Source: Oscillospiraceae bacterium (lineage in GTDB: Bacteria > Bacillota > Clostridia > Oscillospirales > Oscillospiraceae). From it: 64,000 bases of DNA. Below are positions 9,949 through 49,049 of this stretch, in pieces. The position numbers and the translations under genes were made by a program. The DNA is taken from NCBI GenBank assembly GCA_016292255.1, contig JAEEZZ010000139.1, forward strand, positions 171 to 64,170, written 5' to 3'. The first letter of the stretch is position 1. Every line of letters begins with the position of its first letter. The notes under the pieces are model-generated. The model did not search any database. It worked only from the letters and a program-made list of their open reading frames with translations, and was not told where the DNA came from.

Positions 9949-12015
9949 TCAACCTCGTTCAGCCAGATAGATCTCCACTCGGTTCTGGATACGCCGGGCA
10001 GCCTCCTCAGCGGTACAGTCGCCGTTAAAGAAAGCCTGGGCTTCCGAATAAACAAAATCCAAAGAAGTGCTCACGTTTAGGAATCGATTTGTTTCTTTTA
10101 GAAGGCAATCTACTGTCTCCATGGAAGCGAGAAAAATCACCTCAGCCTCCGGCACGATTACGGAACTGGACAGGTACTCCTCCGTTCGTTGTGTCTGGTC
10201 GGCTTCGGTCCATTCTCGATTGAGAAACACGGATTCAATTGCGTTTGAAAAGCTTGATTGCGTCCTAATGTATCGGTGCCATCCCTCGTCAAACAAAACC
10301 GTCTCCATAACAGCACGGACGGCACCCCCATCCGTATCCGCTGCGGCTGCCAGATAGAAGAATGCATCCAGGCGTATAGTGCTCAATTCTGGGAAAGGTA
10401 AACTAAAATACTGATAGTTGAAGGCTGCAGCATAAGAATACCGCAGTTGATGGTCAAGCTGAAAAAGAGTGTTTTCTGCTTCTGAATCCGATCCGTTTTT
10501 TTGAAAAGCCGAAGCTTCCTCCGGGGTCTGTGCACACTGGTTGCAGAATCGAAGCAACGCAATGAATTCCGAACTGTCAAAACAGGCAGTATGATTATCA
10601 AAATCGATCCAATGCTGTAAGGATGCCTCAAACCACCTGCTGAACATTGCTTCTTTTGTTGTCTCTCGAAGTGCCTCGGGTTCCTTCTCTTCCAAAAATA
10701 CAGTCAGAGCAGATAAACTATTAAATGTATCTGATTCGACGCAGTAACGGGAGGGCATCAAACTGACACATGGAACCAAAAGTCCTGGCAGACAATATAG
10801 CTTCCCATCTGTCTGAAGCCCATTGATCATATTCTGGTAAAGAGAATCGGACTGGATCATTTCAGGGGCTGAAATCGTATAATCCTGCAATAATCCCTTT
10901 TCCCCATAATTGTTCAGAAGCAGCAGGTCAGAGTCGCCAACGAAATCGATTTCACCGGTCAGGAGGCCGCGATTCAGCGCCTCAGCATCTGTATACACTT
11001 TTTTGTCAAACTTCCATTCCGTGTGGGTTCGGTTGAAATAGGAAATAAATTCCGAAAAGGTCGGGTATTCGCCGATTGTTCCAATCAGTAGTGTCTTCGA
11101 CTCCACCGGGTCGTGTTGCCCGGTTTCCGCTGCCTGTTCGCGGGAATCCAGCACCAAAAGGCTCCGCTTTTCCAGACAGAGGATCGTACTGAAGTCTGGC
11201 ATCAGCACCCGCAGAAGGTTGGCAGAATTCACACCGCAATGGTTCAAATCGGCCACAGGGGAAAAACAGTCGCCCGATAGACGCCACAGCTTCCCTGCTG
11301 AAACAATTAAACCGGTTTCTGGAGGGCAGCAGGATTTTGCATCCAAAAGTTCCGCAGGTAAGGCGAGTCCGTGCTCCGGAGTCAGAGATGTTTCCGTCCC
11401 ATCAAGGAGTAAAAGAACGCCAGAAATCGGTTTATAGCTCGCTGCATCTAAACGGCTTAGGCAAGCAAAAAGGCCGTCTTGTGTTTCAATCAGAGCACGG
11501 GCTTCCCAGTAGTAATCTGCGTCTCTCGGAAGTTCGAGCACGACCCCATTTCGATATAACGCGCTCCCATCGCAAAGCCAGATGGAGTTTGCTACTTGGA
11601 TGAGCTGGATTGGAGCTGATCCGATTCTTGATTTCACTGGAAAGATCGTGCCGTCTTTGGCCCGGATTTCATAGCCATCTTCACCGTCGACGATTTGAAG
11701 CCGTCCGTCTTTTCGGAGGGAAATCACGTATATTTGTTCCATATCGGACACATCAGTCCGGTGAAAGCTGTTGTCTATCCTGTATACGCCATACGATGTG
11801 CTTAGCAGGTATCCGTCGCCTTCCGGCCATATTTCATACAGGCTATCAGCGTCATAGCTGCACGTCTGCCCGTAATAGTCAGGAGTTTCTACAGACGCAA
11901 CGTGGAGAGTCTCTTCCACGGATTTAGAGGGCACAGTCTCATTCTTGCAGGCAGCAAGAAGCACAGCAAGAAAAACTGCCACGCAGAACAGCGTTGAATG
12001 AATGGCAGACTTCAT
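9949..12015 (-). CDS. Lipoprotein: unknown beta-rich N-terminal domain of about 290 aa fused to an ABC solute-binding-protein-like C-terminal half
   Basis: I used the start MKSAIHSTLFCVAVFLAVLLAACKN, which has a lipobox (LAAC). The C-terminal half (LLIGTIGEYPTFSEF...FDKKVYTDAEALNRGLLTGEIDFVGD...) resembles family-1 extracellular solute-binding proteins. The gene is visibly lower in GC than the permease genes to which it is translationally coupled. Confidence 0.65.
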   Translation of the reverse strand: MKSAIHSTLFCVAVFLAVLLAACKNETVPSKSVEETLHVASVETPDYYGQTCSYDADSLYEIWPEGDGYLLSTSYGVYRIDNSFHRTDVSDMEQIYVISLRKDGRLQIVDGEDGYEIRAKDGTIFPVKSRIGSAPIQLIQVANSIWLCDGSALYRNGVVLELPRDADYYWEARALIETQDGLFACLSRLDAASYKPISGVLLLLDGTETSLTPEHGLALPAELLDAKSCCPPETGLIVSAGKLWRLSGDCFSPVADLNHCGVNSANLLRVLMPDFSTILCLEKRSLLVLDSREQAAETGQHDPVESKTLLIGTIGEYPTFSEFISYFNRTHTEWKFDKKVYTDAEALNRGLLTGEIDFVGDSDLLLLNNYGEKGLLQDYTISAPEMIQSDSLYQNMINGLQTDGKLYCLPGLLVPCVSLMPSRYCVESDTFNSLSALTVFLEEKEPEALRETTKEAMFSRWFEASLQHWIDFDNHTACFDSSEFIALLRFCNQCAQTPEEASAFQKNGSDSEAENTLFQLDHQLRYSYAAAFNYQYFSLPFPELSTIRLDAFFYLAAAADTDGGAVRAVMETVLFDEGWHRYIRTQSSFSNAIESVFLNREWTEADQTQRTEEYLSSSVIVPEAEVIFLASMETVDCLLKETNRFLNVSTSLDFVYSEAQAFFNGDCTAEEAARRIQNRVEIYLAERG

Positions 12016-12115
12016 ATGGAACCTCCAGTCAAAACGCACCAATACCGGTTTTACAACAGAGGGACACCAGCTCATTTCTAAGAAACCGAGCAGTTGCCCC
12101 TCTGTTTTTACTTAC

Positions 12116-12604
12116 TCATGAGACATCTGCGCGAGTAACATACCCAGCTCCTCCATAATTACTCGAAGAAGCAATTTGCGCATATACTCGTGTGCCGCCA
12201 CCACTATATCCAGGAATGTACAGATATGTACCATAACTTAAACTATAGTTATAGCTACTGCCTGTCAGATTTGTGTAAAGGTAGGTGGACGATACTGTTA
12301 CATTATAACAATCATAAGTAGGACAAACATAGTTTGAAAGAACATACCCATAAGTTGATCCATAGTATACATAGATTGCAGTAGGATTTCCAAAAGTCCA
12401 TGTGCCTGAACTATAGGTAACCTTAGTGCCTGGAGAAAGAGTCGCAATAGGATTACCGCCTGAGTCAAAAAGATTAGTCGAGCGGCATACAGTATACCTA
12501 GCAGCAGGGCGCTCGCCGCCGGGCTCTTTGTCTTCCTTGCTTGTCGTTGCTTCAACCATTGGCATCATCTGAAAGAGTAAAAACACTACAAGAACAAGAG
12601 CCAT
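12116..12604 (-). CDS. Secreted Tyr/Ser/Gly-rich protein with two SH3b-like repeats (tentative)
   Basis: 162-aa ORF with a hydrophobic N-terminus ending VEA. Two repeats have the pattern Y(T/N)V...(T/S)xL(F/Y)...G..V...GYV(L/T). AAGGAGG sits 23 nt upstream of the ATG and at ideal spacing to an in-frame ATC, which would add IIKKA to the signal peptide, so the true start is uncertain. Confidence 0.45.
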   Translation of the reverse strand: MALVLVVFLLFQMMPMVEATTSKEDKEPGGERPAARYTVCRSTNLFDSGGNPIATLSPGTKVTYSSGTWTFGNPTAIYVYYGSTYGYVLSNYVCPTYDCYNVTVSSTYLYTNLTGSSYNYSLSYGTYLYIPGYSGGGTRVYAQIASSSNYGGAGYVTRADVS

Positions 12605-12809
12605 TGCTTTTTTTATGATACAAGATACCTCCTTTATGCGTGTATTGTTTTGCAGCCTGCGCTTCGCGATGCGTAGGCCAAACTACCGAATGACATCCCG
12701 GATGTCCTTGATTATTTTAGCACAATTTAATATATATGTCAATCCAATATATTGATTTTTTGTTTATATGTGATATAACTATAAATGAAAAAAGTTAGGA
12801 GGTGCAGCA

Positions 12810-13160
12810 GTGGTAGAGGCAAGCCATTCTTTTTCAGCATACTATAAGCGTGCGGTTAGTCCGCTGCTTGTACTGGCCATGCTGCGGGAGCGACCAATGT
12901 ATGGGTACGAGATTTCTTCCAGAATCTCGGCACAGAGCGGCGGGGCGCTGGCTCTGTCCGTTCTCTATCCGGTGTTGTTCCGGCTTCAGGAGCAGGAATT
13001 CATTGCGGAGGATTCCTGCGTCATTGTGGACGGAAGAGCGCGAAGCTATTATCGGATTACGGAAAGCGGCACGGAATACCTGAAAAAAACCTTGCGGGAA
13101 TACCGAGAGCTTGACCGATTGTTTTCAGACATTACGGGGGAACAAGACCATGAAAAATGA
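12810..13160 (+). CDS. PadR-family transcriptional regulator
   Basis: 116-aa ORF with a GTG start 7 nt after AGGAGG. LLVLAMLRERPMYGYEISSRI...VLYPVLFRLQEQEFI...RSYYRITESGTEYL is a canonical PadR winged helix. Confidence 0.9.
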   Translation: MVEASHSFSAYYKRAVSPLLVLAMLRERPMYGYEISSRISAQSGGALALSVLYPVLFRLQEQEFIAEDSCVIVDGRARSYYRITESGTEYLKKTLREYRELDRLFSDITGEQDHEK

Positions 13161-13563
13161 CAAGATTGTGCACTATTGCAAGCAAGTTGGACAGCGAATA
13201 CTATGCGGCAAAGAACACAGGAAAGCACTGCTTGCTGGGTTGAAGGACGAGTTGCTCGAGCGGGAATTGCCAGACACAATCTCCATGAAGGGGTTGTATG
13301 AGCAAATAGGCACCCCTGAAGTTGTCGCGGCGCAACTCCAGGCTTCCCTGGAGCCTGGAGAAATCCGAACTGAACAGAAGCGAAGAAAACGCAGACATGT
13401 GGTTGCTGCGGCAATCACGTTTGCAGTTCTTTGTGTTGCTTTTGCCCTTGCCGTTCATTTTATCAACTCCCATGAGCCGAAGTTTGTTAAGACTTATATT
13501 ATTTATGGAGATGATTATGATGACCCGAATACTACTTGGTATTCAACAGAACAAAAACCGTAG
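13150..13563 (+). CDS. Membrane protein downstream of PadR (DUF1700/HAAS-like position)
   Basis: I used the start MKNDKIVHYCKQVG (ATG at 13150, overlapping the PadR stop). It has a soluble helical N-terminus, a KRRKRR stop-transfer and one TM (VVAAAITFAVLCVAFALAV). The family assignment rests on position and architecture only. Confidence 0.55.
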   Translation: MKNDKIVHYCKQVGQRILCGKEHRKALLAGLKDELLERELPDTISMKGLYEQIGTPEVVAAQLQASLEPGEIRTEQKRRKRRHVVAAAITFAVLCVAFALAVHFINSHEPKFVKTYIIYGDDYDDPNTTWYSTEQKP

Positions 13564-13576
13564 GAGGATGCAAAAA

Positions 13577-14032
13577 ATGAAACGAATGTTGATTATCTTG
13601 GTTTGTATTAACTTGATTGTCAGTCTTTTCCCGACAAGCGTGAACGCAGAGACGCCGACTAATTCGGAAAGTGTTGCAATTACCTACTTTGAGGACGGGA
13701 GCTACTGTATTACAACGATTACTGTTGTGCAGCACATTTTGGACAGGGCGACAATTACTGGAACCAAAACAAATCAATACTACGATTCTAATGATGTAGC
13801 GCAATTTTCTGTCTCAGTTAAGGGAACATTCACTTATGACGGTACTACCGCAACAGCGACAACCGCTTACTACAGTTATCAAGTGTTCAATAGTTTTTGG
13901 CCTTTTGTATCAGGCAATGCTTCCTGCTCTGGTAATACAGCAACAGCATCCTGCACATTTGCTCTTTTGGGTGTCCTGAATCGGACGCTTTCTGTCTCTC
14001 TAACCTGCTCTCCAACAGGTGTTTTGAGCTGA
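13577..14032 (+). CDS. Small secreted Thr/Ser-rich beta protein of unknown function
   Basis: I used the start MKRMLIILVCINLIVSLFPTSVNA (ATG at 13577, 9 nt after AGGAGG). It has a clear signal peptide and Cys residues in the mature part. I recognise no family. Confidence 0.6.
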   Translation: MKRMLIILVCINLIVSLFPTSVNAETPTNSESVAITYFEDGSYCITTITVVQHILDRATITGTKTNQYYDSNDVAQFSVSVKGTFTYDGTTATATTAYYSYQVFNSFWPFVSGNASCSGNTATASCTFALLGVLNRTLSVSLTCSPTGVLS

Positions 14033-38881: not shown

Positions 38882-38907
38882 ACGGAAAAATGATTGGAGG
38901 GACTTTT

Positions 38908-40116
38908 ATGCGCTACTCCTGGGAGGACGTTCAGACCTTTGTGCAGGAAGAAGACGTCCGATTCATCCATCTTGTGTTCTGCGACGTGTTCGGGCGGCAA
39001 AAGAATATCGCCATTCTGCCCGCCGAGCTCTCCCGGGCCGTCTCCTGCGGGATCGCCATCGACGCGTCCGCGATCTCCGGCTTCGGCGGCGCGGTGCATT
39101 CCGATCTGTTTCTGCATCCGATCCCGGACAGCCTCACCCTGCTGCCCTGGAGACCGGAGCAGGGCAAGCTGGTGGAGCTGCGCTGCTTTGTGACCTACCC
39201 GGACGGACGGCTGTTTGAAAATGACACCCGCTCCCTGCTGCGCGAGGCCGTTGCCAGAGCGGAGCAGGCCGGTCTGTCCTTCTCCTTCGGGCCGGAGCTG
39301 GAATTCTATCTCTTCCGGCTGGACGACGAGGGCGAGCCCACCCGGCGGCCCTATGACAACGCGTCCTATATGGACGCCGCCCCGGAGGACAAGGGGGAGG
39401 GGATCCGGCGGGAGATCTGCATGATGCTCCAGGCGCTGAACATCCAGCCCGAGGGGGCCCACCACGAGGAGGGCCCCGGCCAGAACGAGATCGACTTCCG
39501 CTACTCCGACGCCCTGACGGCTGCGGACAACGCGATGACCTTCCGCTCCGTGGTAAAGACCGTTGCCGCCCGGAACGGCCTGTACGCGGATTTCTCCCCC
39601 CGGCCCCTGAAGCACAGCCCTGGCAGCGGCCTGCATATCAACATTTCCGTCAAGGCGGAAAGCGGCGCGGATCTGCTGCCCCATGTGATCGCCGGCATCC
39701 TGGAGCACGTCCCCGAGATCACCGTGTTTCTCAACCCCACGGAGGGATCCTATGACCGTCTGGGCCGGGACAAGGCGCCCAGCTATGTCTCCTGGTCCAG
39801 CGAGAACCGCTCGCAGCTGGTGCGCGTGCCCGCTGCGGAGGGGGAGTTCCGCCGGGCGGAGCTGCGCTCTCCCGATCCCGGCGCGAATCCCTACCTGGCC
39901 TTCGCCCTGCTGATCCATGCCGCCCTGGACGGGATCGAGGCCGGGCTCTCTCTGCCCGAGCCTGCCGATCTGAACCTCTTCACCGCGGACGAGCAGACCC
40001 TGGCCCGGTTCAGACGGCTGCCCGCCAGCAGATCGGAGGCCGCGCGTCTGGCGCGGGACAGCGATTTTGTGCAAAAGCATCTGCCGCAAATGCTGATCGC
40101 CGCCTATTGCGGCTGA
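38908..40116 (+). CDS. glnA: Glutamine synthetase (short GlnA-family enzyme)
   Basis: I used the start MRYSWEDVQ (ATG at 38908). VRFIHLVFCDVFGRQK..., GPELEFYLF, HHEEGPGQNEIDF and NPYLAFA are GS catalytic motifs. Confidence 0.85.
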   Translation: MRYSWEDVQTFVQEEDVRFIHLVFCDVFGRQKNIAILPAELSRAVSCGIAIDASAISGFGGAVHSDLFLHPIPDSLTLLPWRPEQGKLVELRCFVTYPDGRLFENDTRSLLREAVARAEQAGLSFSFGPELEFYLFRLDDEGEPTRRPYDNASYMDAAPEDKGEGIRREICMMLQALNIQPEGAHHEEGPGQNEIDFRYSDALTAADNAMTFRSVVKTVAARNGLYADFSPRPLKHSPGSGLHINISVKAESGADLLPHVIAGILEHVPEITVFLNPTEGSYDRLGRDKAPSYVSWSSENRSQLVRVPAAEGEFRRAELRSPDPGANPYLAFALLIHAALDGIEAGLSLPEPADLNLFTADEQTLARFRRLPASRSEAARLARDSDFVQKHLPQMLIAAYCG

Positions 40117-40172: not shown

Positions 40173-40778
40173 ATGGTCTTTTCCCAGCAATGCTTCAGCG
40201 TGCTGATCGTGTCGGACTCGGCCCGCTTCAACCAGGCGATCACCGAGCTGATGCCGGCCTCGGGCTATGCGCCCATCCGGATCGTTCCGTCCGTCAGCGC
40301 GGCCAAACGGGCCGCCCTGGAGCGGGTCTATGATTTCGTGGTGCTCAACACGCCCCTGCCCGACGACTTCGGCACGGCCTTCGCCGCGGCCCAGAGCGGC
40401 AATCGGCAGACCGTGGTGCTGATGCTTGTGCGGGCATCCCTGCAGGAGCAGATCCAGAGCCAGGTGACAGACCGGGGCGTCTTCACCCTGCCCAAGCCTA
40501 CCACCCGGCAGGCGCTGCAAACGGCCCTGCAATGGATGGGCGCGGCCCGGGAGCGGCTCCGCAGAATGGAGGAGGCCGACCGGAGCGTGGAGGACAGGAT
40601 GCGGGAGATCCATCGGATGAACCGGGCCAAATGGCTGCTGATCGAGCGTCGCGGCATGAGCGAGTCCGAGGCGCATCATTACCTGGAGCAGCAGGCCATG
40701 GCGCAGTGCGTCAGTAAGCGCGCCATCGTCGATGAGATCCTCTCCGGGCTGGAAGCCCTGCCGCCCACGGAGGGGTAA
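40173..40778 (+). CDS. ANTAR-domain RNA-binding antiterminator with a pseudo-receiver domain
   Basis: 201-aa ORF. The C-terminal ANTAR has REIHRMNRAKWLLIERRGMSESEAHHYLEQQAMAQCVSKRAIVDEIL. The N-terminal receiver-like fold lacks the acidic pocket (VLIVSDS) and has Asn where the phospho-Asp is expected (FVVLNTPLP). Confidence 0.85.
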   Translation: MVFSQQCFSVLIVSDSARFNQAITELMPASGYAPIRIVPSVSAAKRAALERVYDFVVLNTPLPDDFGTAFAAAQSGNRQTVVLMLVRASLQEQIQSQVTDRGVFTLPKPTTRQALQTALQWMGAARERLRRMEEADRSVEDRMREIHRMNRAKWLLIERRGMSESEAHHYLEQQAMAQCVSKRAIVDEILSGLEALPPTEG

Positions 40779-40894: not shown

Positions 40895-42217
40895 TCAGTC
40901 GATCACAGTGGTGTAGTAGGTGGTGGTCGTGCCGCCGGTGGTGGTCTGCTTCCAGAAGTACAGGCCGGTGGGAGCGGAGGAGTTCACCATGAAGTACTTG
41001 TTGGAGGAGAAGGCCAGGTAGGGATAGCGGCTGCTGGCGCTGTTGGCAGCGGTCACGTTGCTGCCGCTGATGGACAGGCTCCACTGGCAGTAGCTGGAGG
41101 AGTAGCTGGAGCGGCTGTAGAGGTAGCTGCTGTAGCTGCCCAGGTAGGTGTTGGTGGAGGCGTTCCGGATGCTGTACTTGGAGCCGGTGGAGGCCACGTT
41201 GAACACGTAGGCGTCGGTGGCGCCGGTCAGCACGTCGCCGGAGCAGGTCATGCCGGTGTTGGCAATGGCCACAGCGCCGCCCGCGGAAGCGGATTCATAC
41301 TTGGTGTTGCCGGACAGGCCCTTCAGCACGTACATACTGCCGGTGTTGGTGCCGTAGGTGATGACGTAGCTGCCGGTCCAGTCGGAGGGAGCGGAGCTCA
41401 GCTTCTGGTAGCCTGTGCCGCTGCTGCCGGAGGTGGAGGTGTAGGAGTACAGAGCCCGCAGCGTCACGTTGCCGGTGACCCGGTAGGAGCCGGTGAGGAT
41501 GTTGCCGGGCTGGGTGGTGGAGTTGTTCACCGCAGCGGTGACCCAACCCAGGAAGGTGTAGCCGGCGGGAGCCGCAGCGGTGGGCAGGGTGACGGTGCTG
41601 CCCGCAGTCACGGTCTGGCTGGCGGGAGCGGTGACGCCGTTGGGCACGGAGTAGCTCACCGTGTAGGTGGTCTCAGGCTCGGGGGTGGAGGCGCTGGGGC
41701 TGGTGGTGTAGTAGGTGGTGCCGGTGGCAGTCGCCTTCCACAGCCGGAGCACGTTGGCGTTGTTGGTGCTGGCGGACCAGAAGTACTTGTTGCTGGTGGA
41801 GAAGCCGAAGTAGGGGTAGCTGCCGTTGGCGTAGTTCTTCAGCTGAGCAGCGCCGCTGGAGTTGACCGCAGGCGTCCATCTGCAGTAGGAGGAGTTGTAG
41901 CTGGTGTAGCCGGCCAGGTAGGAGCTGGAGTTCATGCCCATGTAGACGCCGGTAGAAGCGCTCTGCAGGGTGTAGTAGCTGCCGGTGGCGGCCAGGGTGA
42001 AGACGTAAGCGTCGGAGACGTTGGACAGGGTGTTGTTGGACAGGCTCATGCCGGTGGAGGCGTAGGTGGAGGCATTGTTGCTGTTTTCAATCTGGCTGCC
42101 GTTGGAGCTGGGGGTGACGCCCTTCAGCACGTACATATTGGTGGAGTTGCCGTTGGTGATGACGTAGTTGCCGGCCCAGGTGGAGGGCGTGGAGCTCACC
42201 AGCTGGTAGACGTTCTC
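40895..42217 (-). repeat. Copy 1 of a direct repeat of about 1.3 kb shared by the two protease genes (3-prime stalk region)
   Basis: Long runs are identical by eye to 44352-45653, e.g. CAGGTAGGGATAGCGGCTGCTGGCGCTGTTGGC and GATGGACAGGCTCCACTGGCAGTAGCTGGAGGAGTAGCTGGAGCGGCTGTA. The encoded modules look roughly 85-90 percent identical by eye, which I have not computed. Confidence 0.8.
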
Positions 42218-44224
42218 GCCGCCGTTGCCCTCGGTGCGGGCGTAAACGGCGTACAGCGTGACGTTGCCGCTGGGGGTGTAGGAGCCGCTCAGAACAGCGG
42301 GACGGGTGGTGGTCTCGGCGACGGTGTTGGCAGCCCAGCCCACGAAGCTGTAGCCGCTCACAGCGGTGGCCGTGGTGGGCAGCGTCACAGATTCGCCCTG
42401 GTAGCAGCTCAGGGTGTTGTAGGTGGCGCCGTTGGCCTTCAGGGTCACGGTGTACTGGGTCTTGGCGGCGAAGTTGATGCGAACCGTGCAGTCAGAGGAG
42501 GGGTTCACCGTGAAGGTGTTGCCGTTCTGGGTGACGGTGGCGGTGCCGCTGGTGACGGTGTAGCCCGCCGCGTAGTAGCCGGTCTTCGGGCTGGCGGTGA
42601 TCACGTTGCCGCTGATGGAAACGGTGCCGTAGCCGGTGTTGTTGGAGACGGCGGTCACCGTGTAGGTGGGCGCGGGCGTGGAGTTGACCTTGATGCCGAA
42701 GTATCTGAGGCTGGAGCTGGCGCCGGAGGGAGGATTGTAGACGCCGTTCACGGGCTTGACGGTGATGGAGCCGCCGCCCTTGATGGAGCAGCTGGAGCCG
42801 GTGAAGACCACGGGAGCCAGCAGGTCGTAGGGGCTCTGAACGTCATGATACTTGCTGGGATCGTAGCCGTTCTGCACCTTGAAGCCGTAGATGCCGTTGT
42901 AGTCGCTCTGGGCCGCGTTGGCGGTGACAGCGATGCGGAAATCCCGAACCAGATCGGCGCAGCTCACGCCGGTGGCGTTGGTGATGGCGGAGACGTCGCT
43001 GGAGGAGAACTTGTTGGAGATCTGTCTGTAGATGGTGTTGCCGAATCTGGAGTACAGATACTGGGCGAAGAAGGAGACCTGGGAGTAGAGCGCCAGGATA
43101 TCGCTCAGGTTGTTGTTCCAGGCGTACATGGAGTAGCCGTTGTGCAGGTTGTAGCTGGACTGATACTTGAACTCGGAGGGAGGATTCAGCCAGTCGTTGT
43201 TGTCGGCGTAGTAGTAGTTTTCCCAGGACTGGATGCGGCTGACAAGGGAGCTGCCGGGATAGCAGATCTCCTCGGCCGCGGCGGAGAAGCACTCGTTGAG
43301 CCAGGTGCTCATGCCGCTGGTGTTGGAGTAGTTGATCAGGTGCTGATACTCATGGACCATGGTGTTGTAGGTGGTGTCCATGCTCTTGTATTCAGTGCCG
43401 CTGGAATTCTTGTAGTAGACGCCGGGGTAGGTGTCGATGTTCAGGATGGGCAGGCCGTTGTTGGAGATGTCCACCTGGTAGAAGAAGCCGGCGATGTAAC
43501 CCTGGCCGGGCTGCCAGCCGTCGTTGATGTTGTAGTACAGCATATGCAGCTTGCCGTCGCCGGAGGAGCCGTTGGTGTGGTTGCCGAAGGAGGACTGCAT
43601 CAGGCTGAACTTGGAGTCGAACTCATCGGCGGCCTTCTTGGCGAAGCTGGAGTCGATGGTATCCAGGGGGTAGGTGTTGTTGGCGGAAGAGCTGGGGGTC
43701 CAGATGTAGCAGTGCTGGCCCACGTACAGGCACTTGAACTGCACGCTGCCGCTGCCGGTGGGGGAGTAGGTGGAGTAGATGTTGAAGGTCTTGGTGGAGC
43801 CAACGTTATAGGAAGCTCTGGTGGGGACGGGCTCCTTGATGACCGCGGTCTTGGCTTCCTCAGCCATCAGCGGATCCACGTCGAGCTTGAAGGGACGGGC
43901 TTCGTCCCGGGCGGCCCGGAGGAGCTCGGCGTTGGCGTTTGCGTTGGTGTTGACGGTGGTCTCAATGAGGCCGGTCATGGTGCCGGTGGAGGCGGAGCTG
44001 CTGGAGCTGGTGGAGGGGTTGTAGATCACAACGTAGTCGCCCTCGTAGCCGCCGGCGGCGTCAGAGTCTACTACGATCCCGGAGTATACGGCGCGTACCT
44101 GGGAGCTGACGGCCTCGGCGCGTTCACCCGTCTGTGCGCCCACAGCGGGAACCATCAGGCTTCCCATCAAAGCGAGGATCAAAAACAGAGAGAGCAGATG
44201 ACGAAATGTATGGTGATGCAGCAT
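40895..44224 (-). CDS. Giant secreted HExxH zinc metalloprotease (possibly M30/hyicolysin-like head) with InlB-B-like and Listeria-Bacteroides repeats and two copies of an unknown module of about 160 aa
   Basis: I used the start MLHHHTFRHLLSLFLILALMGSLMVPAVGA (ATG at 44224, AAAGGAG 7 nt upstream; the track start is a TTG inside the SD). The zinc motif TMVHEYQHLINY is at 43340-43354. The stalk has YTVTAVSNNTGYGTVS..., two Flg_new-type repeats (...GYSFVGWA..., ...GYTFLGWV...) and two W.G.YVIT...LWK modules. There is no LPXTG, SLH or choline-binding tail. Confidence 0.8.
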   Translation of the reverse strand: MLHHHTFRHLLSLFLILALMGSLMVPAVGAQTGERAEAVSSQVRAVYSGIVVDSDAAGGYEGDYVVIYNPSTSSSSSASTGTMTGLIETTVNTNANANAELLRAARDEARPFKLDVDPLMAEEAKTAVIKEPVPTRASYNVGSTKTFNIYSTYSPTGSGSVQFKCLYVGQHCYIWTPSSSANNTYPLDTIDSSFAKKAADEFDSKFSLMQSSFGNHTNGSSGDGKLHMLYYNINDGWQPGQGYIAGFFYQVDISNNGLPILNIDTYPGVYYKNSSGTEYKSMDTTYNTMVHEYQHLINYSNTSGMSTWLNECFSAAAEEICYPGSSLVSRIQSWENYYYADNNDWLNPPSEFKYQSSYNLHNGYSMYAWNNNLSDILALYSQVSFFAQYLYSRFGNTIYRQISNKFSSSDVSAITNATGVSCADLVRDFRIAVTANAAQSDYNGIYGFKVQNGYDPSKYHDVQSPYDLLAPVVFTGSSCSIKGGGSITVKPVNGVYNPPSGASSSLRYFGIKVNSTPAPTYTVTAVSNNTGYGTVSISGNVITASPKTGYYAAGYTVTSGTATVTQNGNTFTVNPSSDCTVRINFAAKTQYTVTLKANGATYNTLSCYQGESVTLPTTATAVSGYSFVGWAANTVAETTTRPAVLSGSYTPSGNVTLYAVYARTEGNGGENVYQLVSSTPSTWAGNYVITNGNSTNMYVLKGVTPSSNGSQIENSNNASTYASTGMSLSNNTLSNVSDAYVFTLAATGSYYTLQSASTGVYMGMNSSSYLAGYTSYNSSYCRWTPAVNSSGAAQLKNYANGSYPYFGFSTSNKYFWSASTNNANVLRLWKATATGTTYYTTSPSASTPEPETTYTVSYSVPNGVTAPASQTVTAGSTVTLPTAAAPAGYTFLGWVTAAVNNSTTQPGNILTGSYRVTGNVTLRALYSYTSTSGSSGTGYQKLSSAPSDWTGSYVITYGTNTGSMYVLKGLSGNTKYESASAGGAVAIANTGMTCSGDVLTGATDAYVFNVASTGSKYSIRNASTNTYLGSYSSYLYSRSSYSSSYCQWSLSISGSNVTAANSASSRYPYLAFSSNKYFMVNSSAPTGLYFWKQTTTGGTTTTYYTTVID

Positions 44225-44303
44225 ATAGATACTCCTTTTCAAATTTCAGATTGGTTTTTCTATTGAATTGCGCTGCGTAGGACGTTTCGTTCGTCTGGGA
44301 AAG

Positions 44304-44335
44304 GGATGCCCACCATCTTGCGGTGGTGGGCATCC
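44304..44335 (-). terminator. Hairpin downstream of the C1 protease gene (weak T-tract)
   Basis: GGATGCCCACCA (44304-44315) / TGGTGGGCATCC (44324-44335), a 12-bp perfect stem. The minus-strand downstream sequence is CTTTCCC, so it may terminate only partially. Confidence 0.45.
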
Positions 44336-44351
44336 TGCGAGTGTCAGGGGA

Positions 44352-45653
44352 TCAGGTGGTGTAGTAGGTGGTGGAGCTGCCGCCGGTGGTCTGCTTCCAG
44401 AAGTACAGGCCGGTGGGCACAGAGGAGCTCACCATGAAGTAGTTGCTGGAGGCGAAGGCCAGGTAGGGATAGCGGCTGCTGGCGCTGTTGGCGGCGGTCA
44501 CGTTGCCGCTGCTGATGGACAGGCTCCACTGGCAGTAGCTGGAGGAGTAGCTGGAGCGGCTGTACAGGTAGGAGTTGTAGCTGCCCAGGTAGGTGCCGGT
44601 GGACTTGTTGCGGATGGTGTACTTGGAGCCGGTGGAGGCGATCTCGAACACGTAGGCGTCGGTGACGTCAGTGAGCTTGCCGTCGGCGTAGGTCATGCCG
44701 GTGTTGCTGTACAGGACAGCGCCGCCCGCGGAGGCGGACTCATACTTGGTGTTGCCGGACAGGCCCTTCAGCATATAGAGGCTGCTGGTGTTGGTGCCGT
44801 AGGTGATGACGTAGTTGCCGGCCCAATCGGTGGGCGCGGAATCCAGAAGCTCATAGGCGGTGCCTTCGCCGGAGGTGGAGGTGTAGGAATACAGAGCCCG
44901 CAGCGTCACGTTGCCGGTGACCTTGTAGGAGCCGGTGAGGATGTTGCCGGGCTGCGTGGTGGAGTTGTTCACCGCGGCGGTGACCCAGCCCAGGAAGGTG
45001 TAGCCGGCGGGAGCGGCGGCAGTGGGCAGGGTGATGTAGCTGTTGGCGGCAGCCGTCTGGCTGGCGGGAGCAGTGATACCGCTGGGAACGGAGAAGCTGA
45101 CGGTGTAGTTGGTTACGGGAGCGGCAGAGCCGATCTCGGTGGTGTAGTAGGTGGTGCCGCCGGCGGTCTGCTTCCACAGACGGAGCACGTTGGCGTTGTT
45201 GGTGCTGGCAGACCAGAAGTACTTGCTGCTGGTGTTGAAGCCGAAGTACGGATAGCTGCCGTTGGCGTAGTTCTTCAGCTGAGCAGCGCCGCTGGAGTTG
45301 ACAGCGGGGGTCCATCTGCAGTAGCTGGAGTTGTAGCTGGTGTAGCCGGCCAGGTAGGAGCTGGAGTTCATGCCCATGTAGGTGCCGGTGGCAGCGCTCT
45401 TCACGGTGTAGTAGCTGCCGGTGGCATCCAGGGTGAAGACGTAGGCGTCCGCCACGTTGGTCAGAGCGTTGTTGGACAGGCTCATGCCGGTGGAGGCGTA
45501 AGCGGTGGCATTGGAGCTGGCCTCGATCTCAGCGCCGTTGGAGCTGGGGGTCACGCCCGTCAGCACGTACATACTGGTGGAGTTGCCGTTGGTGATGACG
45601 TAGTTGCCGGCCCAGGAGGAAGGCGTGGAGCTCACCAGCTGGTAGGCGGAAGC
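44352..45653 (-). repeat. Copy 2 of the direct repeat of about 1.3 kb shared by the two protease genes
   Basis: See copy 1. The off-frame shadow ORFs of the two regions in the track are also near-identical (MEPVHQRQQRDRCQQRQQPLSLPG vs MEPVHQQRQRDRRQQRQQPLSLPG). Confidence 0.8.
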
Positions 45654-48600
45654 GCCGCCCTCGGTGTAGGAGTAGAGCGCCTTGAGGGTGATGTTGGCGG
45701 TGGGCTTGTAGGAGCCGGTCAGAACGGTGGGCAGGGTGGTGGCGTTGTTGACCGTGGTGCTGACCCAGCCCAGGAAGGTGTAACCCGCGGGAGCCGCGGC
45801 GGTGGGCAGGGTGACGGAGTTGCCGGAAGCCACAGTCTGGCTGGCGGGAGCGGTCACGCCCTCGGGCACGGAGAAGCTCACCGTGTAGTAGGTGGTAGCG
45901 CCGGTGGCGGGCAGGGTGGTGTGCTCGCGGCTCAGCTCGGCGTTGCAGCGGGTGCAGTAGACCACGGTGTCGTAGCCGCCGTCGGTGGTGGCAGTGGGAG
46001 CAACGTAGTTCTCCTGGACGGAGGCGCCGGGGTTGTGGCCAAGAGCGGCCACGGTCTTGTGGCTGCGGCTCATTTCCTCACCGCAGGTGGCGCAGTAGAC
46101 GACCTCGTCATAGCTGCCGGCAGCGGTGCAGGTGGGGGCGACCACGTTCTCCTGAACGGCGGCCGCGGCGGTGTGGGTGTGGGTCTGGGCGCTGGGGTTG
46201 GTGTTGTAGTAGACGGTGGAGGCGGTGGTCTGCTTCCACAGCTGGGTCTTGTTGGTGGTGTAGCCGGTGTTGACCACGAAGTACTTGTTGGAGCCGACGA
46301 CCAGGTAGGTGTACTGGGTGCTGCCCACGTTGGAGATCTTCATGCAGATGTTATAGGTATCATACTCGATATTCCAGTCGGAGTAGCTGGACTGATAGCT
46401 CTGCATGTTGTGCAGGTAGGTGCTCTGGGTGCCGATCCAGTAGTTGGTGGGGCTCTTGATGGTGTAGGTGGAGCCGTTCTTCGCGATGGTGAACACGTAG
46501 TTGGCGGGGACGTTCTTCAGAACGGTGCCGTCCAGGGTCATGCCGGTGCTGGCGTAGGCCACGGAGGCGCCGCAGGTCGAATTCTCCAGACGCTGGTCGG
46601 AGCTGACGCCCTTGAAGGCGATCAGGCTCGTGTCCTTGCCGCTGGTGATCACGTACTTGCCGGTCCAATCGGTGATGGGCTCGGCCACGATCTCGTAGAT
46701 GATCTCGCTGCTGCCCTCGGTGCGGGTGTACAGGGCGTAGAGGGTGGCGTTGGCGGTGACGGTGTACTCCGCGCCGGGCGCGTAGTAGCTGGGCTTGGTG
46801 GTGGTCTCAGCGACCTGGGAGGCAGCCCAACCCACGAAGCTGTAGCCGTTGACGGCGGTGGCAGTGGTGGGCAGGGTGATGGTGTCGTTGATATAGGCGG
46901 TCTGGCTGCCGGCGGAAGCGCCGCAGGCCATGAAGTTGACGGTCAGCTGGGGCTTCACCGCAAAGATGACCTTGACGGTGCAGTCGGAGGAAGGATTGAC
47001 CGTGATGATGTTGCCGTTGATGGAAACCGTGGCGGTGCCGGAGGTCACCTGGGCGTCGGAGACATAGTAGCCTGCCTTGGGCGTGGCGGTGATCTTGTTT
47101 CCGTTGACGGAAACCGTACCGTAGGAGGTGTTGTTGGAGACGGCGGTCACAGTGTAGCTGGCGTCGTCGGTGTAAGCCTTGATGCGGAAGTCGCCGTTGT
47201 TGGGCACGTCAGTCCAGGAGCCGTTGGCTTCCTTGTAGAAGGAAGTGTTGCCGCGGTTGGCGTGGGTCCACTTGCACCAGGAGATGCTGGCGGTGGCGTC
47301 GTAGGGGATGTGGACGTACTTGCCGTCGTCGGGATCGGCGGAGGGGGTGCTCAGGGTGAAGACCACGGCAAACTTATCGCCGGCGGAGAGGGCGACGGGG
47401 TTGTTCAGCTCGATGGTGTAGTAGCCGGCGTAGGGCATCGTGCCGGTCTGGCTGGTCATCAGCGTGCCGGAGCTGGGGTTGGTGGCGCTGGTGGGGTTCT
47501 TGTAGATGCTCAGGGTGTAGGAGGTCGCCTCGTCCCAGGGAGAGATGGCGACAGCCTTCAGCGTCTCGGAGCCGTTGGCGGTGAAGATGTTGGCAACCTG
47601 GCAGTTGTTGTTCATGGACTGGTAGCTGGCCAGGTTGGTGGTGCCGTCGTACTGATAGCAGTTGGCGTAGTTGCCAACGTTGCTCATCTTGTAGAAGTAG
47701 ACGGAGTCGTTGAGAGAAGCGGAGTCCTCGTAGGAGAGGTAGAAGTAACCGCTCTTGCCCCAGGAGGTGCCCCAGGAGTTCTTGATGATCCAGGCGCCGT
47801 TGCTGCTGGGTCCGTAGGAGGACTTGAAGTTGGACTTGGAGTAGTTGTCGTCCCAGCCGACGACGGTGACGGCATGGTTGCCGTACTGGTAGTTGTTGGA
47901 GCCGTAGGCAGCGCTCTGCTTGAAGCAGTAGCCGCCGGTGCTGGAATTATAATAGGAGTCGTTGTGGTAGTAGCTGATGGTGCCCGCGCCGTACTCCATG
48001 ATGGCTTCCTTGATCGCCTGCATATTGGAGACGGGGATCCACTCAACGCTTTCTACGTGAGCAACGTCATAGTCGTAAGCATATTGAGAGTTGAGGCCGG
48101 AGGTGGAAACATTGCTGTATTTCAGCGCGGAGGTCTTCTCGGAGGCGGGGCCTTCCCAGCGCATCAGCGTGTAGGTGGCCATGGCGCCGTTGCCGCCCAT
48201 ATCCAGGTAGGAGCTGGCGCCGGAAGCGGAGAGCACAGGGCTGGAGCTGTCGCCGGAGAGCATGCCCAGCTTATCGTAAGCATTGGTGTAGTTGAACCAA
48301 GCAAGATGAGATTCAGAAAGATCCATGCTGGTGGTGGCCGCAGCGCCGGTATCGTTGTTGATGATGCCGTGCTTGATCATGTAGGCCTCGACGGAGGCCA
48401 TGGTGCCGAAGGCCCAGCAGGTGCCGTAGGGGTTCTGGTTTTTGACGGAGGTGATGTAGTTGTAGTTGCGGGAGTCATAGCTGGAAGGGAGGGTCGCACG
48501 GGTGCCGTTGGTTTCGTCCGCACCGCTTAGATAGCGTTCTGTCAGGGCGCGGCTGCCGTGGTAGATCATGGGGATGTAACCGGAAATGATCTCTGCGGGT

Positions 48601-48713
48601 TCGTTTGCTTTGCCCTGACCGATCCCGACTGCGAATGCCGCTGTCGGAAGCAGGCCAATGATCAGGAGTACGGTCAAACAGATTGCGAGTAGCTTTTTGC
48701 CGGTTCGTCTCAT
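44352..48713 (-). CDS. Giant secreted papain-like (C1A) cysteine protease with the same repeat stalk, three copies of the unknown module of about 160 aa, and a duplicated Cys-rich insert
   Basis: I used the start MRRTGKKLLAICLTVLLIIGLLPTAAFA (ATG at 48713, GAGGAG upstream). Catalytic motifs are NQNPYGTCWAFG (Cys codon 48417-48419), NHAVTVVGWDD and NSWGTSWG. The stalk is as in the neighbouring gene, and the protein ends ...YFWKQTTGGSSTTYYTT with no recognisable anchor. Confidence 0.85.
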   Translation of the reverse strand: MRRTGKKLLAICLTVLLIIGLLPTAAFAVGIGQGKANEPAEIISGYIPMIYHGSRALTERYLSGADETNGTRATLPSSYDSRNYNYITSVKNQNPYGTCWAFGTMASVEAYMIKHGIINNDTGAAATTSMDLSESHLAWFNYTNAYDKLGMLSGDSSSPVLSASGASSYLDMGGNGAMATYTLMRWEGPASEKTSALKYSNVSTSGLNSQYAYDYDVAHVESVEWIPVSNMQAIKEAIMEYGAGTISYYHNDSYYNSSTGGYCFKQSAAYGSNNYQYGNHAVTVVGWDDNYSKSNFKSSYGPSSNGAWIIKNSWGTSWGKSGYFYLSYEDSASLNDSVYFYKMSNVGNYANCYQYDGTTNLASYQSMNNNCQVANIFTANGSETLKAVAISPWDEATSYTLSIYKNPTSATNPSSGTLMTSQTGTMPYAGYYTIELNNPVALSAGDKFAVVFTLSTPSADPDDGKYVHIPYDATASISWCKWTHANRGNTSFYKEANGSWTDVPNNGDFRIKAYTDDASYTVTAVSNNTSYGTVSVNGNKITATPKAGYYVSDAQVTSGTATVSINGNIITVNPSSDCTVKVIFAVKPQLTVNFMACGASAGSQTAYINDTITLPTTATAVNGYSFVGWAASQVAETTTKPSYYAPGAEYTVTANATLYALYTRTEGSSEIIYEIVAEPITDWTGKYVITSGKDTSLIAFKGVSSDQRLENSTCGASVAYASTGMTLDGTVLKNVPANYVFTIAKNGSTYTIKSPTNYWIGTQSTYLHNMQSYQSSYSDWNIEYDTYNICMKISNVGSTQYTYLVVGSNKYFVVNTGYTTNKTQLWKQTTASTVYYNTNPSAQTHTHTAAAAVQENVVAPTCTAAGSYDEVVYCATCGEEMSRSHKTVAALGHNPGASVQENYVAPTATTDGGYDTVVYCTRCNAELSREHTTLPATGATTYYTVSFSVPEGVTAPASQTVASGNSVTLPTAAAPAGYTFLGWVSTTVNNATTLPTVLTGSYKPTANITLKALYSYTEGGASAYQLVSSTPSSWAGNYVITNGNSTSMYVLTGVTPSSNGAEIEASSNATAYASTGMSLSNNALTNVADAYVFTLDATGSYYTVKSAATGTYMGMNSSSYLAGYTSYNSSYCRWTPAVNSSGAAQLKNYANGSYPYFGFNTSSKYFWSASTNNANVLRLWKQTAGGTTYYTTEIGSAAPVTNYTVSFSVPSGITAPASQTAAANSYITLPTAAAPAGYTFLGWVTAAVNNSTTQPGNILTGSYKVTGNVTLRALYSYTSTSGEGTAYELLDSAPTDWAGNYVITYGTNTSSLYMLKGLSGNTKYESASAGGAVLYSNTGMTYADGKLTDVTDAYVFEIASTGSKYTIRNKSTGTYLGSYNSYLYSRSSYSSSYCQWSLSISSGNVTAANSASSRYPYLAFASSNYFMVSSSVPTGLYFWKQTTGGSSTTYYTT

Positions 48714-49049
48714 GGGGTAGGTCTCCTCTTTCATAAAAATTTTTGCTGTGCGTCTTCCGGACGCCAGCGTAGCAATCATAGCACTAAGATCGAAAAAAGT
48801 CCACAGATTATACATAAATTTTCGTAAAATATTCAGTATTTTTTTGTTCAATATGCCGAATATTAAAAAACGGAGCAGAGTTTTAAAAATGTTTTAACGC
48901 TATGTGTTTTTGTTGTGGAGACAAGGAAAAAATGTGTTTTTTGTGTGAAGATTTCAGAGCTGCAAAAATGAATAGAAACAGGAAGCCGCAGCTTCCGAGG
49001 ATCCAAAAAATGAATACTGTTTTTTTGCCTGCGGAGCCCCCATGGCCGC

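Follow-up and report, generated by a model that had tools for sequence, protein, structure and literature searches.

The stretch analysed here (hereafter the window) comprises 64,000 nucleotides of an Oscillospiraceae bacterium (GenBank assembly GCA_016292255.1, contig JAEEZZ010000139.1, positions 171 to 64,170 of the forward strand), in which two neighbouring open reading frames (ORFs) on the minus strand, called gene M and gene C below, encode secreted-type proteases and each carry copies of a module of about 160-170 amino acids (aa). An earlier note on this DNA had described five such copies, had placed the module in no family and had taken it for a candidate novel carbohydrate-binding module (CBM) or lectin. 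We propose here that the module is a very divergent beta-trefoil that nearly always stands behind a Flg_new-type repeat, and that it most likely serves as a binding head on the proteins that carry it. The copies, with the repeats that precede them and the subtypes (A, B and T) discussed below, are as follows.

40895-44242, minus: gene M, ORF of 1115 aa
42227..42457, minus: Flg_new-type (InlB B-repeat) repeat just upstream of M1 (Pfam Flg_new_2, aa 598-669; alignment)
41729-42217, minus: M1, subtype B, internal, core aa 676-838; with TYYTT tail aa 676-847 (41702..42217)
41423..41677, minus: Flg_new repeat just upstream of M2 (Pfam Flg_new, aa 860-930, protein E 1.2e-16)
40940-41416, minus: M2, subtype T, C-terminal, core aa 943-1101; with tail aa 943-1115 (40898..41416)
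44352-48851, minus: gene C, ORF of 1499 aa, likely start Met47 at 48713
46713..46952, minus: Flg_new-type repeat just upstream of C1 (Pfam Flg_new_2, aa 636-701)
46221-46706, minus: C1, subtype A, core aa 716-877; with tail aa 716-884 (46200..46706)
45660..45899, minus: Flg_new repeat just upstream of C2 (Pfam Flg_new, aa 989-1058)
45165-45653, minus: C2, subtype B, the copy used for AlphaFold, core aa 1067-1229; with tail aa 1067-1238 (45138..45653)
44871..45125, minus: Flg_new repeat just upstream of C3 (NCBIfam TIGR02543, aa 1282-1319; alignment)
44385-44864, minus: C3, subtype T, C-terminal, core aa 1330-1489; with tail aa 1330-1499 (44355..44864)

The five copies align over their full length, 38 columns being invariant and the mean column identity 65%, and they lie within about 6 nucleotides of where the earlier note had put them, the consensus pattern given there being essentially correct as well. 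Since homologues from other organisms score 80-230 bits against the five-copy profile, a chance resemblance is excluded. The length of about 160 aa assigned before holds for the core, but the module ends about 10 residues later, with a 'T-x-YYTT' tail; in M2, where the protein ends as ...TTYYTTVID, the terminal 'TTYYTTVID' is predicted as a strand (residues 250-256 of the two-domain model below). Relative to M1, the identity is 86% for C2, 45% for M2, 42% for C3 and 36% for C1. The latter copy had been described as much more divergent than the others, and its identity to M1 is indeed the lowest, but it belongs to a conserved separate subtype rather than being merely a drifted copy. It is also noted that the C-terminal 497 aa common to the two proteins, with the order Flg_new-module-Flg_new-module, show 78% aa identity and 81-92% DNA identity, and therefore represent a duplicated or converted cassette; judged from the sequences, the copies cannot be counted as independent events. 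The residues S, T, N, Y, G and A make up 65-69% of four of the five copies and 53% of C1, with 15-19 Tyr per copy. Such a composition, rich in these residues and in Tyr, is typical of carbohydrate-binding surfaces.

That the module always follows a Listeria-Bacteroides (Flg_new) repeat, as had been claimed, holds for five of five copies in the window, and a Flg_new-like segment lies immediately 5' of the module in 135 of the 142 copies of carriers elsewhere. The whole-protein E-value of Flg_new is 1.2e-16 for M and 2.4e-21 for C, with Flg_new_2 matches in addition, and the Pfam positions abut each copy. In the figure legend of PMC9210967, Flg_new is labelled as the stalk domain of a fibrillar-adhesin-like protein. 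The AlphaFold model of the last 260 aa of M, containing one Flg_new repeat and one module, has a pLDDT of 90.6, a pTM of 0.65 and a linker with pLDDT<50; with both domains confident and only the linker and the overall pTM low, the model indicates a flexible joint between Flg_new and the module. The literature searched (on the Flg_new/Listeria-Bacteroides repeat with trefoils, on rumen trefoil CBMs and on lugdulysin) gave neither a description of the module nor a regular 1:1 alternation of Flg_new and beta-trefoil.

Fold and conserved residues of the module

The AlphaFold model of copy C2, built on an alignment of 29 sequences, is all-beta with 15 strands, a mean pLDDT of 93.3 and a pTM of 0.90. 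When the model is compared by Foldseek, as the earlier note had suggested, 74 PDB matches are obtained at E<=1e-3, and among the matches listed all are beta-trefoils, with TM of 0.57-0.65 and identity of 12-20%. They include human and rat FGF1, FGF18, the ricin-type domains of the mosquitocidal holotoxin (2vse), botulinum HA33 and the designed Symfoil, together with the 169-residue chain 8i0w_2 of a spliceosomal C complex, which we take to be FRG1, mouse FRG1 (2yug) standing at rank 10. In the viral library BFVD the model matches fascin-like, FGF and ricin-type trefoils only. A sequence profile of 52 copies matches, among PDB sequences, fascin at E 2.4e-5 (summed over its four trefoils), HA-17 at 5e-4 and the ricin-B-like lectin 4ion at 3e-3, and at lower rank designed trefoils and FGF1. 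The significance of the profile against trefoil families is marginal but consistent.

In Pfam and NCBIfam scans of the whole proteins, of the isolated copies and of 52 diverse copies, no curated family is found above threshold for the module. The isolated copies show only sub-threshold matches, to RicinB_lectin_2, Fascin, FGF, HA-17 and CCL2-like families, and the recurrent Pfam matches are all to trefoil families. RicinB_lectin_2 (PF14200) is the best, sub-threshold, Pfam family for 11 of the 52 diverse copies (best E among the 52, 1.5e-4), with the best window copy at 22.6 bits against a cut-off of 25.6; PF00652 is not reported for any module copy in the Pfam scans.

A beta-trefoil is a barrel with a cap, made of about 12 strands that form three pseudo-symmetric lobes. 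As modelled, the module would be built of a trefoil core with an extra N-terminal strand and the C-terminal 'TYYTT' strand, amounting to about 170 aa. By hhalign, a weak resemblance persists between its beta and gamma lobes (P=0.002), whereas the alpha lobe, which carries a family-specific insertion of 15-17 residues, is not significantly similar to either. On the basis of the model we take the module firmly to be a very divergent member of the beta-trefoil superfamily, and its sequences mark it as a previously uncurated family that belongs to none of the curated ones. Thus, the earlier statement that the module cannot be assigned to any family stands as far as Pfam and NCBIfam are concerned, but the fold can be assigned. 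The earlier note had also named a confident match to a characterised family as the outcome that would speak against novelty; there is such a match at the level of the fold or superfamily, and none at the level of the family.

In an alignment of 116 copies, conservation falls mostly on aromatic and aliphatic residues of the core (Y18, V19, I20, F73, Y82, Y92, L101, W114, F146 and W160), to which W14, G16, G33, E44, G56 and K161 are added, with the Glu E44, carried by the alpha-lobe insertion, being conserved in 78%. The (QxW)3 motif and the sugar-site residues of ricin-type lectins (Asp, an aromatic residue and Asn/Gln) are not present in the module, the QxW positions being occupied by YCxW in the beta lobe and LWK in the gamma lobe, with none in the alpha lobe, and the sugar-binding Asp of the 'LD' motif corresponds to a gap in the alignment to the agglutinin 4g9m.

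The two proteases and other carriers of the module

The further features of M and C are the following.

44135..44242, minus: probable Sec signal peptide of M (…LLSLFLILALMGSLMVPAVGA), read by eye from the translation
42860..43648, minus: M30 (hyicolysin/lugdulysin-like) zinc metalloprotease catalytic domain of M, HEYQH ... WLNE (phmmer)
48630..48713, minus: probable start Met47 and Sec signal peptide of C (MRRTGKKLLAICLTVLLIIGLLPTAAFA), read by eye from the translation
47169..48527, minus: Cwp84-like papain-family protease and 'Lectin_like' domain of C (Pfam and PDB match)

The labels 'metalloprotease' and 'cysteine protease' that the two genes had been given are supported. In M, the catalytic domain finds its match in lugdulysin (PDB 7bb8; phmmer, E 2.5e-14), the alignment pairing both HEYQH and the WLNE further downstream, and the catalytic domain of C belongs to Peptidase_C1 (6.5e-16), followed by the Lectin_like domain PF18560 (4e-28), a match to Cwp84 of Clostridioides difficile (PDB 4ci7, 4d59; E 5e-32) spanning both domains. 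A Pfam scan of the N-terminal half of M gives zero families at E<=1, and the rumen branch of M30-like metalloproteases appears to lie outside current Pfam coverage. In the Pfam and NCBIfam scans none of the wall anchors SLH, CWB2, GW/SH3, LysM, choline-binding and LPXTG is found in M, in C or in the isolated modules, and both proteins end as ...TYYTT(VID), without a hydrophobic or charged sorting tail. The exact sequences of the window's own proteins have no entry in the protein collection where they were looked up.

The module family is rare. An exhaustive search of 1.84 billion cluster representatives (clusters at 50% identity) gives 282 clusters at E<=1e-3, 153 at E<=1e-10 and 80 at E<=1e-30, with carriers of up to about 4300 aa. 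A scan of 185,579 species genomes, whose search patterns derive from the five copies of the window and thus favour close relatives, finds 65 loci, all in metagenome-assembled genomes (MAGs) of uncultured Bacillota (Oscillospiraceae, Lachnospiraceae, Erysipelotrichaceae, Ruminococcaceae, Christensenellales and unclassified Clostridia), the restriction to rumen Bacillota thus describing this close branch and not the distant clusters. At least 35 of the 65 are named from ruminant fore-stomach catalogues (RGIG with rumen, omasum or reticulum, RUG, Tb.RUG, ruminal_MAG). The window itself has about 85% DNA identity to one locus (L001), flanking genes included. A word-indexed homologue search gave 26 matches, mostly fragments, and 3 with a broader profile; the taxonomy given here is based on the two larger searches. 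For the one carrier cluster whose NCBI name was looked up (P0028), the name is 'InlB B-repeat-containing protein' only. It is also observed that at five loci (L003, L005, L006, L015 and L042) two module-carrying ORFs are adjacent on the same strand, as in the window; tandem arrays of carriers seem to be common.

The profile search for spread and partner domains, which the earlier note had called for, shows the carriers to be mainly proteases and SLH giants. Among the 93 full-length carriers, single-sequence searches give 21 Cwp84-like and 4 M30-like proteases (23 and 6 without the length filter), and altogether about a third of these carriers are proteases. Further Pfam partners are subtilase (S8), lipase_3, alpha-amylase, Cthe_2159, GH85_C, dockerin (2 cases) and choline-binding repeats. 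In the 43 carriers that were scanned with Pfam there are 14 with Peptidase_C1 and 8 with SLH, while alpha-amylase, GH85_C, Cthe_2159 and Rha78A-Ig are single cases. SLH domains occur in 38 of the 93 full-length carriers (41%), and among these are giants of 3-4 thousand aa made up of nothing but three SLH domains at the N-terminus, Flg_new repeats and the module. Two of them, P0037 (3848 aa) and P0053 (3142 aa), have many Flg_new repeats, 1-3 modules and no recognised catalytic domain, and from their domain composition they would be adhesin- or scaffold-like surface proteins. A further protein, P0034 (1075 aa), in which the adenylation and OB domains of NAD-dependent DNA ligase (LigA) are fused to trefoil-Flg_new-trefoil and which has no signal peptide, is most likely a chimera produced in assembly or gene calling and was set aside. 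Carriers that end with the module number 20 of the 93, and SLH is found in 0 of these 20 versus 38 of the other 73, a contrast that is partly trivial, as SLH is often C-terminal and then makes any module internal, and that is down-weighted here as evidence of anchoring. With the two window carriers both proteases and carbohydrate-active partners only single cases among the 43 scanned carriers, no linkage that would make the module a CBM in the CAZy sense is found. Given carriers that are mainly proteases and SLH adhesin-like giants, and the missing ricin-type sugar signature, the 'novel CBM' half of the earlier claim is weakened.

For the assignment of subtypes, 128 full-length copies taken from other proteins were each scored against the five of the window. 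Six copies clearly belong to subtype A (C1-like): five are found at about aa 660-840 in other Cwp84-like proteases, and the sixth is in a subtilase. Subtype B (M1/C2-like), with 25 cases, is never C-terminal. By contrast, 26 of the 39 cases of subtype T (M2/C3-like) are at the extreme C-terminus, versus 0 of the 31 of A and B together (Fisher p=9e-10). Put in another way, all of the 26 C-terminal copies with an assignable subtype are T, 9 further terminal copies being without assignment. The recurrence of the three subtypes across species argues for a differentiated function.

Several other features of the window are noted. In C, aa 893-985 (45897-46175, minus), between C1 and C2, hold two motifs of about 45 aa with Cys and His (APTCTxxGxYDxVVYCxxCxxExSRxH, the second without its first Cys) that give weak zf-BED and zinc-ribbon matches (E 5e-5 to 1e-2); similar motifs are present in the homologues P0007 and P0061, and the stretch may be a small extracellular zinc-ribbon-like spacer. 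Antisense to the protease genes there are long ORFs rich in Gly, Val and Ala, at 44268-48530 (plus, 1420 aa) and 42845-44266 (plus, 473 aa), and the GC skew is +0.25 across 42-48 kb; these ORFs do not look like genes but like a side effect of the real genes, whose codon usage is strongly biased to Ser/Thr/Tyr/Asn/Gly. Convergent to M lie a glutamine synthetase (38890-40116, plus) and an ANTAR response regulator (40173-40778, plus), so that nitrogen-metabolism genes adjoin the secreted proteases; a DAP epimerase is on the same flank, and the other flank has an MBL-fold hydrolase and a two-component system. Among these neighbouring genes of M and C no functional link to the module is found. Finally, at 10001-14000 the GC content falls to 0.44-0.49 from the 0.60-0.65 of most of the window, and this stretch may be foreign or mobile DNA.

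Possible roles and known systems

We propose a model in which the module is a non-catalytic, stalk-mounted binding head on secreted enzymes, with a glycan as its most likely ligand, and to this we lean, if only somewhat. In the model, Flg_new and the trefoil would form a flexible 'stalk + head' unit that occurs one to six times per secreted or S-layer-anchored protein of uncultured rumen Bacillota. The heads would have no catalytic role and would hold the attached enzyme, here the M30 metalloprotease or the Cwp84-like cysteine protease, on a surface, and the several differentiated heads (A, B and T) of one protein would strengthen the hold by avidity and might allow it more than a single specificity. 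As ligand we would expect a glycan, carried by feed particles, other microbes or glycoproteins. The reading as a binding head is based on the module being non-catalytic, extracellular, stalk-mounted, repeated, differentiated into subtypes and joined to unrelated enzymes. That it is accessory and not catalytic follows from the unrelated catalytic domains of its partners (about 23 Cwp84-like, about 6 M30-like, S8, lipase_3 and alpha-amylase), and that it is not simply a wall anchor follows from the 38 of 93 full-length carriers that also bear SLH. What the earlier note had called the behaviour of a binding module is thus upheld in the sense of an accessory module behind Flg_new. The repeats, the predicted fold, the order of the domains, the distribution and the partner domains are shown here; that the module binds something, and that this would be a carbohydrate, we infer.

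A glycan is favoured because of the fold and the composition, and a lectin-like adhesion head is plausible for a module with this predicted fold. Four points weigh against such a head for sugars. The canonical R-type (ricin) sugar site is absent, the conservation is found nearly all in core residues with no conserved polar pocket signature found, the nearest trefoils by sequence profile (fascin and HA-17) bind proteins rather than sugars, and carbohydrate-active enzymes are seldom partners of the module. Because the R-type site is absent, the class of ligand is left wide here, and because the ricin signature is lost, fascin and HA-17 are protein binders and few partners are carbohydrate-active, the glycan can be put forward only as the ligand that fold and composition suggest.

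The main rival explanation, which we consider rather unlikely though to be reckoned with, is that the module, especially subtype T, holds the enzyme non-covalently on the envelope of its own producer via a wall glycopolymer, taking the place of the CWB2 repeats of Cwp84 or of the SLH domains of other carriers. Cwp84 of C. difficile continues with three CWB2 wall-binding repeats. Protein C keeps the protease and lectin-like core of Cwp84, but Flg_new-trefoil units fill the position of CWB2 (Cwp84: PMC4089489), and M and C have no other recognisable anchor. The restriction of the assignable terminal copies to subtype T (26 of 39 T versus 0 of 31 A and B, p=9e-10) and the lack of SLH in carriers that end with the module (0 of 20 versus 38 of 73) point in the same direction, the latter exclusion, however, being partly trivial. 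By contrast, 41% of the carriers pair the module with genuine SLH domains and 2 with dockerins, so that there it is not needed as an anchor; in the giants the SLH domains are N-terminal and the modules distal; and in the Pfam and NCBIfam scans the module does not resemble CWB2, SLH, GW, LysM or choline-binding repeats. The module might instead be an inert spacer, the trefoils being stable beads without a ligand of their own whose task, shared with Flg_new, would be to keep the enzyme at a distance from the cell. The dominance of core residues in the conservation, with no polar pocket signature found, and the alternation with a known stalk domain are consistent with this, but the three subtypes keep their positions from one species to another, a spacer has no use where a protein ends, the alpha-lobe insertion has its conserved Glu E44 (78%), and beta-trefoils are, as is generally known, overwhelmingly ligand-binding, and we thus consider the spacer improbable.

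It might further be supposed that the trefoil masks or tunes the attached protease in the way of Kunitz/STI inhibitors or mycocypins, since beta-trefoil inhibitors of C1 proteases (the mycocypins) exist and about a third of the full-length carriers are proteases. This we regard as extremely unlikely, as no inhibitor family is found in Pfam at E<=10 or E<=0.01 and none is among the top 50 PDB structural matches, neither Kunitz/STI nor mycocypin membership thus appearing in the family scans or in these matches; moreover, the module also occurs with a lipase, with an amylase and in SLH giants without a recognised catalytic domain, and several stalk repeats separate the copies from the catalytic domain, with copies placed at the far C-terminus. 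A more speculative idea, to which we give a very small chance, is that the C-terminal subtype T is a docking module that plugs C1, M30 and other enzymes into SLH-anchored giants, which are almost wholly composed of Flg_new and trefoil units, producing a multi-protease assembly on the surface. The docking would proceed by trefoil-trefoil or trefoil-Flg_new contacts, similar to those of HA-17 with HA33 in the botulinum complex; if true, rumen Clostridia would have for proteases what the cellulosome is for cellulases.

In ruminants, the efficiency of nitrogen use is governed by proteolysis in the rumen. Seen as a beta-trefoil head that is mounted on a Flg_new stalk, the module would give a testable handle on how proteases and giant proteins are positioned in uncultured rumen Oscillospiraceae, Lachnospiraceae and their relatives. 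As a coherent domain family that curated libraries do not cover, the module lends itself well to an entry of its own in such libraries, and as a very divergent trefoil without the QxW signature it is useful for studying lectin and fold evolution.

Finally, we compare the module with known systems. Secreted bacterial enzymes that bear beta-trefoils as accessory binding modules are well known, and no new kind of system is present here. The ricin-B-type lectins and CBM13 (PF14200, PF00652; HA33, MTX) have the same predicted fold (TM 0.57-0.65) and, like the module, accompany secreted bacterial proteins as accessory parts without catalytic function, often in several copies. They differ in that the module has only 12-20% identity to them, lacks (QxW)3 and the sugar-site Asp, contains the alpha-lobe insertion of 15-17 residues and the extra terminal strands, and is nearly obligately joined to Flg_new, mostly on proteases rather than on glycoside hydrolases or toxins. 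The fascin/FRG1/FGF group gives the best structural matches (FGF1, 8i0w_2, 2yug) and the best sequence-profile match (fascin), but reaches no family threshold and belongs to an unrelated biological context, its members being eukaryotic proteins, intracellular or cytokines, with actin, RNA-processing partners or heparin and receptors as their binding partners. Botulinum HA-17 (PF05588) is a clostridial single beta-trefoil with a profile E of 5e-4, and one module copy matches its Pfam family at 3e-4, the similarity being limited to the beta and gamma lobes. HA-17 acts by itself, as an adaptor for HA70 and for other trefoil proteins (HA33), and is no part of a multidomain enzyme.

The architecture has two counterparts. 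Cwp84 (4ci7, 4d59; PMC4089489, PMC4356305) has in common with protein C the cysteine-protease and 'lectin-like' core (E 5e-32), where the 'lectin-like' domain PF18560 of both is a different domain from the module; after this core, protein C continues with two Flg_new_2 repeats and three Flg_new-trefoil units. In fibrillar adhesins with Flg_new stalks (InlB B-repeat; PMC9210967), a stalk repeat projects a terminal or interspersed head, as it would here, and the head domains of those proteins are of other folds, versus the beta-trefoil predicted for the module.

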